Shown here in pieces: positions 4,491-48,790 of a DNA stretch of 64,000 nucleotides. The stretch comes from Lingula anatina (Eukaryota; Animalia; Brachiopoda). The notes under the pieces are model-generated. The model worked only from the letters and a program-made list of their open reading frames with translations. It was not told the DNA's origin and made no database searches. A program made the position numbers and the translations under genes. Each line of letters starts with the position of its first letter. The first letter of the stretch is position 1. The stretch is from contig CM120641.1 in the NCBI GenBank assembly GCA_051362555.1, forward strand, positions 31,502,401 to 31,566,400, given 5' to 3'.

Positions 4491-4975
4491 CTATAATAGA
4501 AATGAATTTTTGTTTTTCATTGTTCCAAATCTTATTTTTTGCTTTCTGGCCAGTCATCAATACTACTTTGTCTGTATTCTTTCAATATTTGAATCTATCA
4601 ACTAAACACAACCATTCATTAACACTGGCAGTTTGAGTAAACAATCATCATATTGTAACGTGAGGGGTCCGGTCGCTCGACCGCGACACCCGAGCGCGAC
4701 GTGGGAACTTAGATGTTTCGTATGGGAAAGTATATCCCTGTCCTTCAGAAATAAAGAGGCAGATTTGTGTTTCAAAAATAGTGTTTATTAATTGCAAAAA
4801 TCGACCATAAAATTCTCAAGTCAGAATATCACATGACTTATAGTCCTAAGAGTCTATGAAACTGAGACTATGGTGACACGTGCAGAAGAGTCAATATCCT
4901 GGATGGAGTTGGGTAGCATGCGTCGACATCGAACATCTCGTAGGTGGAGTAAGGTAACTGGACTGGTAACATGGC

Positions 4976-5375
4976 GATCGAAGGACGACTTCGTTCGGAG
5001 GAAGGTAGCATGCGATGACATCTGGAATAGTAACACAGCGAAGGACAACTTCGTTTGGAGGAAGGTAGCGTGGGACGACATCTTGAATAGTAACACAGCG
5101 AAGGACAGCTTTGTTTGGAGGAAGGTAGCGTGGGACGACATCTGGAATAGTAACACGGCGAAGGATGACTTCTGGAGGAAGGTAGCGTGCAACGACATCT
5201 GGAATAGTAACACGGCGAAGGACGACTTCTGGAGGAAGGTAGCGTGCGACGACATCTGGAATAGTAACACAGCGAAGGACAACTTCGTTTGGAGGAAGGT
5301 AGCGTGGGACGACATCTGGAATAGTAACACGGCGAAGGACGACTTCTGGAGGAAGGTAGCGTGCGACGACATCTG
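4976..5375. repeat. 57/60-bp minisatellite (~7 units) inside the solo LTR
   Basis: Repeats of GCGAAGGACGACTTC(GTT)TGGAGGAAGGTAGCGTGCGACGACATCTGGAATAGTAACACG; explains the overlapping repetitive ORFs at 4854-5454. Confidence 0.95.
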
Positions 5376-5635
5376 ACTTCTCTTCGTTTCTGCTCGGTTT
5401 CAGCTGGCTGAATATCAAACCCGACGATTCCGGACGGACAACTAAAGGCAACAAAATAAAATCATCTCCATCTCGGAGGAAACTTCATCTCCATCTCGGA
5501 GGAAACCACTGCGCACTTGGACTGGAACATCATCAACAGTTCCAAGCTGACGTCTGCGCTTCACCAATGGCGCCCCGGACCCGTACGGCATTTCACCCAG
5601 GGATGAGATGTGCACTTCTCTTCGCCATCATATAG

Positions 5636-12230: not shown

Positions 12231-12814
12231 AGCAAAGCTGTCAAATGTACAGACAAAAAGCAGACAATAACAATGCACAAAACAGGCTACTGTCAATTCT
12301 GATGCAAAAGTACCTGTACATTATGCTTAACTGCAAATTCAACATCAAATTTTAATTATGCTCAACAGGTAATACCAATGTAAGTGAAATGTGTAACAAG
12401 CGTGAGGCTTCAGGCCCATGGGAGTTTAAGTTCACACTTTGAAAATGCCAGAATGAGAGAAATGAAAATTTCACATAAAACTGCTTAAATTCAATAATAA
12501 ATGATAACCCATTTGAGCTGGCTTTCTTATTTGAACTGCATGCCAATCCTACAAATCATACTTGTAAGTTGAAAATAATAATAAGTAACACAGTTTTCTT
12601 TTCATAATGTTTGTAGTAGCAGTGCAAAAAGATTTTTGTCAATTTTGATGTAACATTACATAATAAATTACAGAATAATTATCAACAATTTTTGATTATT
12701 GACTATAAATAGCATGGACATGTAAAAAATTTGATTACCATTTGGCTTCATGTCCATGGGAGCTTCAAGTCCCACAGTGAATATGCCAACATGATAAAAA
12801 TGAATATTTCACTA

Positions 12815-12928
12815 TAAATAAGTACACTGCACTATTTGTCGTTAAGCGTTTATTGGTCCAACTTGACAATGATCGCTATCTGAAACAGAAGGTAAATTAC
12901 ATAAATCTACATAAATAATTATCCTATA
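12815..12928 (-). repeat. 3' LTR (114 bp)
   Basis: 113/114 identical to 18074-18187; minus-strand AATAAA at 12849-12854. Confidence 0.95.
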
Positions 12929-12937
12929 TCTCCCCCC
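12929..12937 (-). promoter_or_regulatory. Polypurine tract
   Basis: GGGGGGAGA on the minus strand abuts the 3' LTR start TATAGG. Confidence 0.85.
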
Positions 12938-13114: not shown

Positions 13115-14605
13115 TTATGACAGCTCATTGTCTTTTTGCCAAGCTGGGGGTCGAGTGGCACGAGTGGAGTGTCTAGGTTGATCCATGGTAAGAGGCTGGG
13201 ACATTCCAGGTTGACTATCCACTATCCTGGGGCGTGGAGGGGTACAAACACGTGTGCTAACACTGACTGGCCTAGGTGGGGATGCATTCCCCAAAGGTAA
13301 AAGACGGCGCTTTGGGGTGATGGTCCCTTTGGATGGCGTATCTGTGGCGGGTGAGGGTGTGTTGAACAGTTGAGGTATGGGTGGTGCAGTCAATGATGGC
13401 GGGGTTTCACACTGCGTTTGTGTGTCATGAGAGTGTGGGGTAGCCTTGGCCTTAGGTGATGCAGGTAGGCCAGGGATTTCTTCCTTGCGTTCCTCCTGAT
13501 CAGTGGCAACCTTGGCAGGGAGTGTTGGAGGAGAGCCAGGGATTTCCTTCCTTGTCTCCTGATCAGCTGCAAGTTTGGCAAGTGGTGGGGTAACATGCGG
13601 AAGCTGAAGATCACGGTCTATGGTCTGGATAGGTGTGGGTTGCAGGACAGGGGTGTAACGCCGGAGGAATTTCCTGTTCCGTAATGTGACTCGTCCCGAG
13701 CCATCTACTCTCACAACATATTGATCGAACTGCCGTACTTCAACCACGGTCCCAGTCTTGTCCCATTTCAGGGGGTGAGGGCCTGTCTGATTCTGGATTC
13801 GGACACGATCCCCTACTGCAAGGGGTGCAAGTCTCTTGGTGTGCTCCGTAAGGCGTTCTGCCATCTTCATATGGCGATTTCTGAGCGCTTCCTCCCTAGC
13901 CTTAAGGGTCTCTTGCCAAGTGGTGTGTGGTTTATATCTCCCTGGTGGAATGGGGATGAAATCACGGATGGGGTGCCCAAAGACGCACATTGCCGGTGAG
14001 AGTTTGGTGTCTCTGTCCGGGGTGTTCCTGTACTGAAGCATAGCACGCTGAAAGCTGTCCGTGTCCAGGTCACCATTAGGGCTGGTATTGTCTGTGATGA
14101 GGCGTTTTACTGTTTTAACCCCAACTTCAGCACGGCAGTTACTATGGGGAAAGGCTACTGATGACATACGATGATGTACACCCCAATCAGAAAGAAACTT
14201 CTTGGTGGCAGTTGATGTGAACTCCGGTCCCCCATCTGAGGATAGCTCATCGGCTATGCCAAAGGTGACAAAGGTCCGTCGAAGAGAAGCTATCAGGCCA
14301 GCCGCTCTTTGGGATGCTCTCTCCACAATCGGCCAGTTGGAATACCGATCAACAATGACAAGATAGTTATTACCCATGTAGTGGAAGTAGTCAGCACAGA
14401 CACACTGGAATGGGTAGTCAGGATATATCAATGGTGTCGGAGGTGCACTCGGTTGGGAGGGGGTCATGCGGTTGCAGTGGTTGCAACCTGTTCTGGTGGA
14501 TATTATATCAGGTGTAATGCCAGGCCAGAAGATTGAGGACTCGGCTCTGGTTATCATAGAGGAGATCCCCTGATGGGCACTGTGCAATGTAGAGAGGACG
14601 TCTTG
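13115..14605 (-). CDS. pol: Integrase part of pol (downstream of the frameshift)
   Basis: Zinc-binding HSAHQG...CNHC; catalytic D (ADYF), D (SDGGPEF) and E (NCRAE); GPY/F-like module RVRIQ...[11 protein letters not shown]...RNRKFLR; Pro/Thr-rich tail with no chromodomain seen. Confidence 0.93.
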
Positions 14606-17600
14606 CTTAATGCAGGTGGGATGACTACACGGTCTCTATACAACACAACTCCGTCGATTGTGCTGAGGTCCTCCTTGAACTGATAATACTCGCGAAGCTT
14701 GATGGGGAACTCTTGGCGGCTCTCTGGCAGACCTGAGGTTATTAAGTCTGCTAGCATAGCCATATCTGCATCACTTGTGGTTGCTGTGCGTACTCTGTCC
14801 CAGGTCACTGATTTCAAGGTGATGGATGCCAGAGAGGATGTAAGTGCAGAGATCATGTTTTCCTCCATGGGGATGTGATTGGGGGCAGGGGATCGGATTT
14901 GAGACAGAGGGTGATGTTGGCTGACAGTAGCAACGTCGTCAGGGAGTGGGAGCTTATCTGGATCTCCTGTGGGATGACGAGATACGCAATCTGCAGCAAG
15001 GTGTTTGACCCCACGTATATGTACCATCTGGAAACGGTATCTGAGGGTCTTCTCCTTCAAGTTTCTTAGGCGGGGGTTGTTGATATCATCAAGGGACCTG
15101 CCGCTAAAGACCTTCAGTAATGGCTTGTGGTCAACTGCAATGATGAGGTCATGACATCCAAGGACAAAGTACCTTGTTTTGTTCAGAGCATCAGCAACAG
15201 CTAGGGCTTCACCCTCGATGGGGGCATATCGCGATTCAGCAGAGTGGGTGAAACGGCTGCCTACAAGAGTAATCTTCCATCCAGATGGGCAGCAGAATGG
15301 TCGGATAGGCTGGCAAGAGCAATGCTTCTGTAGGAGCCAGAACCCAATTCCATTTTTGGACCAGTCAGTTGCAAGGCATGTGGGCCTGGACTTGTCAAAT
15401 ATTCGGACCCCCTCTTCAATTTCCTTGGAGATGACAGCCTTGGATTCTTCGAAGAGACTGTTGAGATCCTCGTCCCATCTGAAGGGGGTTCCAGGTTGAA
15501 GAAGACATCTAAAGGGAAGCATTTTGTCTGCCATGCTGAAGGCATATGATACCTGGTTGACCAAACCAAACCATGATCGCACATCAGTAATGTTTCGAGG
15601 GGTGGGAAAGTCCAAGATGGCCTGAAGGTACTTGGAACTGGGCTTGACACTGTCCAGGGTAATGTCAAATCCTGCAAATTCCACCTCATCTTGTGCAAAG
15701 ACAAACTTCTCTGGGTTCAGAGTGATGCCATGTCTACCACAGATGTCTAACCACTCTACGGCTTTGAAGAAACTCCCCTCTATTGAGCTGGACCAAAGTA
15801 GGACATCATCGACACATTTGGTTTTGTTGGTGATGTGCGAGACAATTTCGTCATATCTCCTGGTGTACCCATCACCTGAAGCAATGTACCCTTGGGGAGC
15901 AACCTTGTATCGGTATCTGCCCCAGGGTGTGATAAACGTTGTAAGATGGCGATCCTCCTCACGAATGGGTACACTGTGATATCCATTCCAAGCATCTAGA
16001 ACTGTCTTTTTCTTGCCTTGGGGCACAGCCCTGGCTTGGTGAAAAGGAGAAGGGGTGTGGTGGGTCTCTCGTGTAGCATGTGCATTCAGAGCCTGTAGAT
16101 CAACTGTGCGGCGTAGCCTGCCATTGTTCTTCGCACATACAACCATGCGGTGGCACCAGGTGACTGGCTCGCCAATTGGGACTGGTTCGATGACCCCTAG
16201 TCTGACATCTTGGTCAAGTCCTGCTTTCACTTCTTCCTGCCAGTGAAGTGGGACTGGTATTGGAGTGTGATAGGCTACTGGTGCAGCAGAAGGGTCTACC
16301 ATCAATTTCATTGGCGGGCTGTCCATGAGGGGCAAGGGCTGATGATCACATGTATTAAACGTACTGGACCTGTAATAGTCCAGAAGGTATTCCTTCAGTC
16401 GCCCACAATTCTGTTCTGTCGCAGGGAAAGGCAGCTTCGTTGGAGGCGGGGGAGGTGGTTGACGATTGGGGCAAGTGCATGTGTGTTGGGCATCAGCGCC
16501 ACGTGCTGTAAGGGTAATGTCAGGGAACACGGAAGCACACTGCGACATGTGATATGCACCCACAGTCGGGAAGGTCTTTGGTATGATGCCAAGTGCAATA
16601 CATGCCTCCCTGCTGATAAAGAGCTTGTCAGAGCTGTCGGTGACATAAGTCATCTGTCTTGTTTCCACCAGTTTGCCAGATGGGCCCTTCCCAGCATAGC
16701 GAAGTATAGTTGCTCCAAGAATGTTGATGCCATTGTTGACAGCAGTGTGCATCTTCATAGTGACTGGGATCAGGTCCTGTCGCTTCAGGCCTAGACGTTG
16801 GATTACCTTAATGCCAGCAAGGCAGCTCTGACAACCAGTGTCAGCCATTGATGGATGTTCTATTGGTGTTCTATTGGCTGAGGATAGAAGGCTGAAGCCT
16901 AGCTCTCTGTAATCATCTGCACAGACCGTGATTCTGAGGTTGACGAACGGTTGTGGTTTGGAAGCTCTTCGCACCCACGTGTCATTCAATTGATCATAGA
17001 TATGATGATCTAAAGCAATGGCCCTGCCTTTCGTATGTTGTGTTGTGATGGTGACAGAGCAGAGCGATTCAAAGACGGCGCCTTCATAGTCATCTGCCTC
17101 ATGACAGGAAGTAGTCTTCTGGCTCGGCTTGGGTTTGTCTTTGCTACGGCACACTATTTCAAGGTGGTGGTATCGTGTGCAGGTCTGGCATTTGTGCCCA
17201 AAGGCGGGGCAATCTCTCTTACGAATGCGTAGAGGAGCAGCCTTGCCATGGCCAGTTTTCCCGCAGTAGCCACAGGGGTCCTGGGGTGGTTTTTCGGCAG
17301 GGGTGGGGGTCTCTTTTTTCTTGCGATGGTAAGTGCTACCGATGGCCTCAGCTGCTTGGGATTCTTGTAAGCGTGATGCGGAGCGCTTCCCTGCTTCTTT
17401 TGCTTCCACAAATTGGAGGACTTCCTCCAATGTCATGTCCTGGTTCTTATCCCCTAAAAGGTCTATTTGGATCTCAGAGTCTGCTAATCCACGGGTTAGA
17501 ACATCACGGGTCATCTCCTCCATGTAGCTTACAGCAGTGTTGCAACTGGGGCATGAGACAGAAAATTTGCACACTCCTGCCTGGCCTTTTAGACGGGCTC

Positions 17601-18048
17601 CATAGTTGCGGACAGGTTCATCTCTGTCTTGGCGCATGTTCTGTAGTGTCACTCTAGCCACCATTGTGTTCTCTGTGCGTACAGCTAATGCTTTGATTGC
17701 GGCCATCACCTCATCAACGGATTTGTTTGCAAGGCTTCCACCTGCTGTCCTAGTTAGGTCTTTTCGCAAGGGGTCATCACAACATTCCAGCAATTGGATA
17801 ACCCTGTCTTTGCCAGCTATCTTTGTTGCATCGGCATATTCTGTCCATCTGGACTGAAAGTATGACCACTCTTCACTGGTACCGCAGGCTGATATCGTGG
17901 GCCGCTTGACTTTCTCCACTTTGGCTGCAGTAACAGGAGCGTTGGTATGAACAGAGCTGTGTGTGGTGAGTAGGGCTGCTACGATAGTGGCATCAAGGTC
18001 ATCTGTGGTGTAGTCACAGCCTTCTATTGGGCACTGGACCGCCGGCAT
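14606..18048 (-). CDS. gag-pol: Gag-protease-RT-RNase H polyprotein
   Basis: Two Cys/His knuckles (CGYCGKTGH...C; [14 protein letters not shown]), protease ADTG, RT motifs LDAWNGY, YKVAPQG and CVDD, RNase H TDWS...IEGEAL...VDHKPL...ADCVSR. Confidence 0.95.
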
Positions 18049-18062
18049 GTTGTCAGGTATGG

Positions 18063-18073
18063 GATAGCGATCA
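18063..18073 (-). promoter_or_regulatory. Primer-binding site complementary to the element's own LTR (putative self-priming)
   Basis: TGATCGCTATC directly after the 5' LTR; exact complement GATAGCGATCA at 18139-18129 on the minus strand. Lacks the TGG start expected for pairing with tRNA CCA. Confidence 0.8.
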
Positions 18074-18187
18074 TAAATAAGTACACTGCACTATTTGTCG
18101 TTAAGCGTTTATTGGTCCAACTTGACAATGATCGCTATCTGAAACAGAAGGTAAATTACATAAGTCTACATAAATAATTATCCTATA
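18074..18187 (-). repeat. 5' LTR (114 bp)
   Basis: Minus strand reads TATAGGATAA...CTTCTGTTTCAGATAGCGATCA...AATAAA...CTTATTTA. Confidence 0.95.
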
Positions 18188-18844
18188 CACTAAAATGTAT
18201 AACTTCCAGAAAAAGAAGCCAATTAGACTGCTTTTCCAACTCAGGCTGCATTTTAGTCCTTTGTTTCTTTTTTGAAAGTTTGACAATCATAAGTAACATG
18301 GTTTTCCCATAATGGTCATCATGGCAGCAGCACCCAAAATTGTGTTTTCTTCTATTTTAATGCAATATTACGTAATGCTTAACAGCATAATGACCATCAG
18401 TTTTTAATAATAAAAGATCCATATCATGGATTTTCAGAAAATGTGATTTGCATGGGTCTTCAAGCTCGTGGAGGTTCTTAAGTCACACCTTGAAAATGCC
18501 AATATGTGAAAAATTAAATTTTCACAAAAAACTGATTAACTGCCAAAAAAATTTACCAAATAGACTGCATTGCCTACTGAAGCTTTATTTAAGTCCCATG
18601 TTTCTTCCTGTAAGTTTGAGAACAGTAAGTGACATGGTTTTCCTTAAATGGTCATCATGGGAGCAGTGTCCAAAATAGGGGTGTCTTCAAATTTTGATGC
18701 AATATTACATAATGTTTAACAGGATAATTACCATCAATTTTTAATAATAAAATATTAGTATCATGGATATTCAGAAAATGTTCCTAGCAAAGGTCTTCAG
18801 GCCCAAGGAACTTCAAAGTCACACCTTGAAAATGCCAAAATGTA

Positions 18845-47732: not shown

Positions 47733-48414
47733 CTTTTACTAACACTACCCGCAGATCTTTTAGCTCTACCACCCATTTTAACCACAGAGCATACAAATTA
47801 ACCAGCACTACCCGAGCGGATGAATGTTAGTGCTATAGGTTTTGCTTTGTTGGTGCTAAATAATTGTGTGGTGCGTTGGCAAATCCGTGGGTTTTGTGGT
47901 TAATATGGGCGTTAGTGCTAAAGATTTGCAGCTAGTGTCAGTAAATGCCTTATCCGTTTATAAGGCCTGGAAATCCCATACAAAATTTTATTGAAACTGC
48001 TGCCATAAATGATAGAGTTGACATAGAGTTAACATAGAGTTAAAACCTTATCTTCCCAAAGCAATTTCTTTGATGTATAATTAAAAAAAGCTTCAAATGT
48101 TCTTATTCATCATGGTCTTTAGATAATCTTAGAGATCAAATATCTATCCAGGTATCAGGACGCCCCCCCCCCGGACAATCCCCCTGTAATGAATATAATA
48201 ATGAAAATGAAAATGTCATATTGAGAAAAATTATAAATGCCTGCTTTTAATAAAATTCTGTCTCTAGGTGGTGGGTAGGCAGATAACCTCACTCTTTCGG
48301 GTATCCTTTTGATGAAATTACTGGAAGTTTTAATTGTTTTACCACTGCCCCAGACAGAAATAAACAAGCTCCGAAATTTATATATATCATCTTTTTTTCT
48401 AATTTAATTTTTGC

Positions 48415-48707
48415 CCCCCATCCACGGCCTTCTCCACATCCCTTCCCCTCCCCACGGCCTTCTCCACGTCCCTGCCCCTCCCCACGGCCTTCTTCACGTC
48501 CCTGCCCCTCCCTGCAGCCTTCTCCACGTCCCTGCCCCTCCCCACGGCTTTCTCCACGTCCCTGCCCCTCCCCACGGCCTCCCACGTTCCTGCCCCTCCC
48601 CACGACCTTCTCCACATCCCTGCCCCTCCCTGCAGCCTTCTCCACGTCCCTGCCCCTCCCCACGACCTTCTCCACATCCCTGCCCCTCCCCACGGCCTTC
48701 TCCACGT
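48415..48707. repeat. 30-bp GC-rich minisatellite (~10 units)
   Basis: CCCACGGCCTTCTCCACGTCCCTGCCCCTC repeats. Confidence 0.95.
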
Positions 48708-48790
48708 GAGGTACATAGTTGTATATTCCATTTATACTAGGTGAGTACAGCTGTGTGTACCATGAACGGAGACAGTTCGGCTATTGCCTG

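Follow-up and report, generated by a model that had tools for sequence, protein, structure and literature searches.

A clade of Ty3/Gypsy retrotransposons, represented here by an element in a 64,000-nt stretch of Lingula anatina DNA (the window), carries a primer binding site (PBS) that pairs with a stretch of its own long terminal repeat (LTR), and since both partners change together from family to family, the group likely primes reverse transcription with its own RNA. At the level of sequence, this signature is real, clade-wide and well supported. We consider it very probable that the primer derives in some form from the element itself, and likely, by analogy with Tf1, that the first 11-14 nt of the element's own RNA would serve as primer and be recopied into the PBS. 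So far, self-priming of this kind has been demonstrated in Tf1 of fission yeast.

The Lingula anatina element and its priming region

The window element is a 5.4-kb Ty3/Gypsy element on the minus strand, with direct LTRs, a polypurine tract, a target duplication and the order protease-RT-RNase H-integrase, and its best relative among solved structures is Ty3 RT. Its features are the following:

18188..18192, minus strand: 5' target-site duplication TAGTG, from the sequence and the both-LTR check
18074..18187, minus strand: 5' LTR, 114 bp, TA..TA ends
18139..18150, minus strand: pyrimidine tract ending in CAG (A 18140, G 18139), of presumed initiator-like or splice-acceptor-like function, likely near the RNA start
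18129..18139, minus strand: putative self-primer arm GATAGCGATCA, from pairing and clade covariation
18124..18128, minus strand: R/U5 stem, 5' side, beginning directly after the primer end, with moderate clade-level support
18108..18113, minus strand: AATAAA poly(A) signal, from the sequence, presumably used
18095..18099, minus strand: R/U5 stem, 3' side (GACAA)
18080..18092, minus strand: U5 terminal hairpin adjoining the PBS
18063..18073, minus strand: PBS position TGATCGCTATC, immediately adjoining the 5' LTR and lacking TGG
14554..18048, minus strand: gag-protease-RT-RNase H frame from the ATG at 18048 (CCHC knuckle, DTG, CVDD)
13115..14635, minus strand: integrase frame with zinc-binding region, rve core and Pro-rich tail, without a chromodomain
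12929..12937, minus strand: polypurine tract
12815..12928, minus strand: 3' LTR with a second arm copy at 12880-12870
12810..12814, minus strand: 3' target-site duplication TAGTG

The two LTRs, of 114 bp each, differ by one mismatch, and a frame break near 14.6 kb parts the gag-RT frame from the integrase frame; as such, the window copy is young but broken, and many relatives have a single ORF of about 1600 aa. In agreement with the earlier note on this DNA, the window ORF has no chromodomain after the integrase, and none was found in 12 full-length relatives (0/12 at E 0.1) or among the precomputed domains of 120 listed matches. The ESM Atlas returned generic RT clusters only. The element is inserted in an AT-rich interspersed repeat (18189-18400 and 12430-12810) with an RNA read depth of 340-720. 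Run X8 contains four reads with a 190-nt gap at 16530-16721 whose ends are not those of a splice, and this gap probably reflects a deleted copy elsewhere in the genome. Two tandem repeats lie further away in the window, namely a 60-bp repeat of about 7 copies at 4837-5484 with open frames on both strands, and a GC-rich 30-bp repeat at 48289-48780 on the minus strand with a frame of 163 aa that encodes a Gly/Arg/Glu repeat.

The minus strand reads TGATCGCTATC at 18073-18063, where the earlier note had placed the PBS, and the complement claimed for it, GATAGCGATCA, is present as a perfect match at 18139-18129, upstream of the AATAAA at 18113-18108, and again at 12880-12870. Given that the LTR (18187-18074) is bounded by TA..TA and by the TAGTG duplication, the PBS begins at the first base after the LTR, directly behind it as had been proposed. 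The duplex measures 12 bp once the last LTR base is counted and 11 bp otherwise, lengths reached in 4/2000 and 8/2000 dinucleotide shuffles of the 139-nt LTR-plus-leader, respectively. The folding z-score was -4.1 for 18139-18063 and only -1.0 for the whole LTR and leader. The two short stems suggested between PBS and arm (18128-18124/18099-18095 and 18092-18088/18084-18080) do exist, but in the window copy they do not go beyond chance (loop z = +0.5); both recur across the clade with moderate strength. No tRNA gene is present within the window.

Recurrence and covariation of the duplex across the clade

Two protein searches gave 465 and 844 matches, of which the best 120 of each were 55-86% identical and included entries named for Mytilus, Saccostrea, Mercenaria, Batillaria, Elysia, Acropora, Actinostola, Diadema and Palaemon; the host groups among the matches listed are molluscs, cnidarians, an echinoderm and a crustacean. 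Among viral contigs, one weak match (L001) was found and two scans were empty. Through the gag alignment, 80 metagenome loci (out of 138 confirmed) and 5 loci on genome contigs were obtained, making 86 elements including that of the window. After four loci without a gag start had been left out (L064, L070, L071, L075), 82 elements fell into 45 families at 80% identity, and with three more set aside for having less than 100 nt upstream (L004, L017, L028), the duplex scan covered 79 elements of 43 families. Five clade elements (L082-L086) lie in contigs titled as bacterial MAGs, two of them (L082, L083) with both LTRs and target duplications, and the contigs concerned probably represent DNA of animal hosts that ended up in those bins.

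In the 300 nt that precede gag, 55/79 elements and 33/43 families carry an inverted match of at least 11 bp without mismatches, compared with 19/1580 shuffles and 0/79 coding stretches. Most families of relatives thus do have the complementarity whose absence the earlier note had counted against its own proposal. Widening the search to 800 nt added L015 (14 bp) and L046 (13 bp), giving 35/43 families, and an 11-bp duplex was absent from 8/43 even at this width: L005 has 9 bp, the arm of L029 lies off its contig, and L049, L055, L057, L066, L067 and L069 are degenerate, deleted or unexplained. Nine elements of 4 families with both LTRs have TA..TA ends with a matching 5-bp duplication, and in these the PBS opens with the base that directly follows the LTR; the remaining both-LTR candidates are collapsed, damaged or without a matching duplication. 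The LTR ends in A in all of the 35 anchored families, as TA in 32 and as GA in 3. A chance complementarity or an artefact of one assembly, for which the 8/2000 shuffles with an 11-bp match leave some room in the window copy, is refuted by these data, as the duplex recurs in the same place with different letters in 35/43 families from many independent assemblies, and the probability that we would still assign to it is negligible.

For the covariation analysis, 35 families whose anchored duplex measures at least 9 bp contributed one representative each, with L018 omitted by hand (its best match is a U3 repeat) and with the anchor of L085 off by 3 nt owing to a mismatch, its true PBS start being TGA. 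The PBS 10-mers are highly diverse, with 32 distinct ones among the 35 families and a mean pairwise identity of 4.7 of 10. Nevertheless, the PBS matches its own LTR at 10/10 positions in 34/35 families, as against 6/1190 comparisons with the LTRs of other families, all six of which involve identical 10-mers, and all four pair types occur at several PBS-arm positions. Relatives' PBS and arm therefore change together, which was the check that the earlier note had proposed, and this cross-family covariation strongly supports, as far as sequence can, its suggestion of self-priming. In a first MAFFT alignment of 12 sequences, 120/120 cells were paired with double changes at 9/10 pairs, and in a second, also of 12 sequences and with a 14-bp primer helix, 98.8% were paired with double changes at 9/14 pairs; 0/500 shuffles reached the covariation score in either alignment, and no slid register came near it. 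The sequences in both alignments were picked for having the duplex and their families are related, so these counts are conditional and the unbiased figures are those of the 79-element scan.

Family 11 appears to have preserved the intermediate steps of such a change. Most of its copies (L021-type) have the old arm and the old PBS, in L022 both LTRs carry a new arm and the PBS is still old, and in L031 both arm and PBS are new, whereas L026 has a changed PBS with an unchanged arm, a state that counts against our reading. The old, half-changed and compensated states are as expected if the PBS is recopied from the primer. Extra copies of the pairing sequence also occur in U3, as a PBS-like copy about 30-45 nt before the arm in L018, L019 and L025 (family 7) and as a partial second arm about 38 nt before the arm in the L021 family (family 11), and in 3' LTR RNA such copies could compete for either primer or PBS.

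The same data bear on the reading that a host tRNA, tRNA fragment or small RNA primes while the role of the LTR arm is confined to shielding the PBS or aiding packaging. Half-tRNA priming does exist in copia lineages according to passages of PMC6317226, and 29/35 of the would-be primers end in CA, as this reading would have it. However, a PBS starting with TGG was seen in 0/35 anchored families, as many as 32 different 10-mers and all four pair types at several positions would have to be accommodated, and the PBS changes even between near-identical copies, something incompatible with a host RNA of fixed sequence. In addition, Rfam gave three matches for 17900-18300, every one far below threshold. 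We therefore regard a host RNA primer as very improbable, and a primer taken from the element itself as the reading that best accounts for the duplex.

The structures beside the duplex are more weakly preserved. A helix of at least 6 bp directly after the primer end was found in 30/35 families, compared with 43% among shuffles; 14/35 families have a U5 hairpin at least as stable as -3 kcal, a level that 15% of shuffles reach, and the loop as a whole folds only weakly better than shuffles (mean z -0.37 over families). When own partners were ranked against cross-family partners, the first stem came in the top tenth in 12/35 families, and the U5 hairpin, weaker than the first stem, in 7/35. A clade-wide LTR-leader duplex of the Tf1 type was not supported, as it was at chance in the 35 families (4-5/35, mean rank 0.52-0.55). 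The leader of the window copy can itself form such a Tf1-like pairing (18050-18055 with 18123-18128, minus strand, -11.4 kcal), one that is not kept in relatives. On the opposite strand of the post-PBS leader, 18053-18062 (plus strand) reads like a splice donor, CAG/GTATGG, which is probably chance.

The proposed priming cycle and the front of the RNA

In analogy to Tf1, we propose that transcription starts at or beside the CAG at 18141-18139 and that the first 11-12 nt of the RNA fold back onto the PBS. A cut behind the conserved CA would then release the primer; the element's RNase H, a domain that is present in the window element, would probably make it, and the R/U5 stem and the U5 hairpin might help cleavage. 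From the 3' end thus released, the RT would continue directly with the final base of U5, and plus-strand synthesis would copy the primer into a new PBS, so that a change in the arm would pass to the PBS in a later round. For Tf1, about half of the cDNA is reported to retain a PBS copy (passages of PMC11042837).

RNA reads over 16400-18400 (three runs, with contigs of one run) reached a depth of about 5 or less within the element and up to 16 in the LTR, a sequence that other copies share; at this element depth no start pile-up is listed, and an RNA contig from a sibling copy bears out 18187 as the edge of the LTR. In 27/35 families there is a YAG whose A precedes the primer end by 11-16 nt, in 17 of them by 14 nt, against a background of 26%. 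The duplex stops exactly at the A of this YAG in 11/27 families, an observation nearly confined to one 12-row clade (10 of 11). From its sequence, the YAG at the start of the arm may be an initiator or a splice acceptor. The TT that follows its AG in 12/24 cases fits the TCAKTY initiator named in the available part of PMC3601003.

If the YAG were instead a 3' acceptor to which a spliced leader or a host exon from further upstream is joined, the self-primer would be the same and only the front of the RNA would be spliced, and the very short U3 (47 nt in the window element) would need no promoter. In comparison with other YAGs of the LTR region, the primer YAG is indeed richer in pyrimidines (0.69 vs 0.49), has fewer upstream AGs (6/24 vs 116/145) and more often carries YTNAY (18/24 vs 71/145), while both CAG and TAG are used and TATAWA is rare (3/24). 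On the other hand, the AG depletion is mostly compositional (9 seen vs 14 expected), the AG itself lies inside the duplex in 11/27 families, a G follows it in only 1/24, and the bases beyond the duplex vary where one leader would make them constant. Spliced leaders are not known in several of the host groups named, which counts further against splicing. A related candidate, an intron inside the LTR that completes the primer, was rejected: in the 27 families no GT donor within the upstream 150 nt extends the duplex (mean gain 1.0 nt for own vs 0.88 for cross-family combinations), which also weakens the case for a spliced front, so the primer does not span a splice junction; the arm is already contiguous in DNA, unlike an intron-split primer. 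Taken together, we find a spliced RNA front unlikely. A bolder proposal, to which we would give a slim chance, is that the clade is animal-wide, invented self-priming apart from the chromoviruses, splices its RNA front at the acceptor of a tiny LTR and rewrites its PBS in each round; if true, neither a tRNA nor a promoter of its own would be needed, and primer and PBS would drift freely together.

It is also conceivable that the same primer sequence is supplied by the 3' R copy or by another RNA, such as a second genome or an R-derived small RNA, instead of by the 5' end in cis. The arm is present in both LTRs, the PBS variant of L026 is identical to the arm found in a different family (L014, L078), a trace that trans priming could leave, and covariation cannot separate cis from trans. 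Yet L026 may be the result of one point change, the duplex ends sharply at the start-like motif and does not run into U3, and 16/35 families have an A[AT]TAAA downstream of the arm, so that the 3' end of the RNA would not fall at the arm. We judge this source of the primer to be quite improbable, and the 5' end of the element's own RNA, acting in cis, remains our preferred primer. A further observation concerns the PBS base next to the duplex, which is a C in 19/35 families and in 14 of the 16 in which the A or G of the YAG closes the duplex. That this C might be a copy of the cap is kept as a lead only, because 10/14 of these cases belong to one 12-row clade; nothing on this idea was found in the literature passages on Tf1 available to us or in titles.

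Relation to Tf1 and to unnamed Gypsy elements

The original self-priming papers are reportedly those of Levin, Lin and Butler. In the available passages, self-priming is described as demonstrated for Tf1 and as predicted for Tf1/sushi, Tcn1 and TAR copia (PMC6317226, PMC4600332, PMC10085805, PMC5341516, PMC6934838, PMC5006619). Tf1, Tf2 (Schizosaccharomyces pombe), Tj1, Tosmo1-3, Tcry1 and Tf1/sushi share with the window clade a PBS after the 5' LTR that pairs with an upstream LTR stretch, and passages of PMC10085805 and PMC4600332 describe for the Tf1/sushi group the same absence of a tRNA site, a similar primer length and, likewise, a stem beside the PBS on the U5 side. Tf1 is stated to need three duplexes around its PBS, the 'pretzel' (passages of PMC10085805), and the likeness of the window clade is thus partial, with the central duplex present, the U5 hairpin in 14/35 families and the leader duplex at chance. 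The two groups differ in that Tf1/sushi chromoviruses have a chromodomain and LTRs ending in ..CA, whereas the window clade has no chromodomain and TA..TA ends, and by eye their RT motifs also differ (KLDL.SAYH, MP[FY]G and Y[LM]DD in Tf1/sushi, DAWNGYH, APQG and CVDD in the window clade). The lack of a chromodomain and the TA ends place the clade outside Tf1/sushi, however Tf1-like its working may be, and the mechanism shown for Tf1 is thus one that we propose for the window clade. A precedent outside Tf1/sushi is the TAR lineage of Ty1/copia (Houba, Osr-1), for which self-priming is predicted from sequence in passages of PMC6317226, as it is for Tcn1, a chromovirus clade close to Tf1/sushi; TAR elements are copia and live in plants, in contrast to the Gypsy elements of animals studied here.

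Self-priming has until now been treated as a hallmark of Tf1/sushi, with the plant TAR copia elements as a predicted second case. Its signature in a large Gypsy clade of marine invertebrates without a chromodomain suggests that tRNA-free priming is commoner than assumed and that self-priming is either ancient or easily re-invented, which bears on the question, raised in passages of PMC3601003, whether the first LTR elements primed themselves. In addition, the natural primer and PBS variants indicate what matters, namely the CA end, pairing over 10-14 bp and the flanking stems, and that the letters of the primer do not. LTR finders that demand TG..CA ends or a tRNA PBS would tend to miss a clade with TA..TA ends and no tRNA site. 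In the literature searched, a scope outside which fall Repbase Reports, most subscription journals and preprint supplements, we found no description of self-priming in this clade; PMC10680173, PMC9873768 and PMC5443660 held nothing on point, and the clade name 'Selfy' had no match.

The description of the element as Mag-like in the earlier note could not be upheld. The Mag lineage (Mag, SURL, Jule, Steamer), as far as the available sources describe it, likewise consists of non-chromodomain Ty3/Gypsy elements with short LTRs that are common in marine invertebrates, but the LTRs of Mag A and Mag C run TGT..ACA (Table 3 in the available part of PMC3601003) as opposed to TA..TA, and the RT motifs differ by eye from those of Mag, SURL, Jule and Steamer. 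Within the available part of the RT alignment in PMC8220671, the motifs of Tf1, sushi, Maggy, Mag, SURL, Cigr1 and Gmr1 also differ by eye from those of the window clade, and all 17 entries with AWNG are unnamed elements of those authors, with no named reference among them. One of the 16 unnamed mollusc clades of PMC6238403 may be the window clade; no matching sequences were found in the portion of its supplements available.

Eleven elements of Lamellibrachia luymesi (LLGY5, 6, 14, 25, 32, 58, 85, 107, 112, 115 and 135) have the same RT motifs, TA..TA ends, a 5-bp duplication, LTRs of 117-191 bp and a length of 5.1-5.6 kb (available part of PMC8220671), and on these sequence features they very likely belong to the same clade as the window element. 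The available part of that paper contains no treatment of the PBS or priming of LLGY elements that we could find, and, over the 21 of 24 places covered, it gives TA..TA ends for these 11 of the 17 AWNG entries. A sister group in the same part of PMC8220671 (LLGY23, 74, 100 and 120) has PQGF instead of PQGY and is not among the TATA-motif rows seen; its LTRs may have other ends, and its PBS type would help to date the origin of self-priming.
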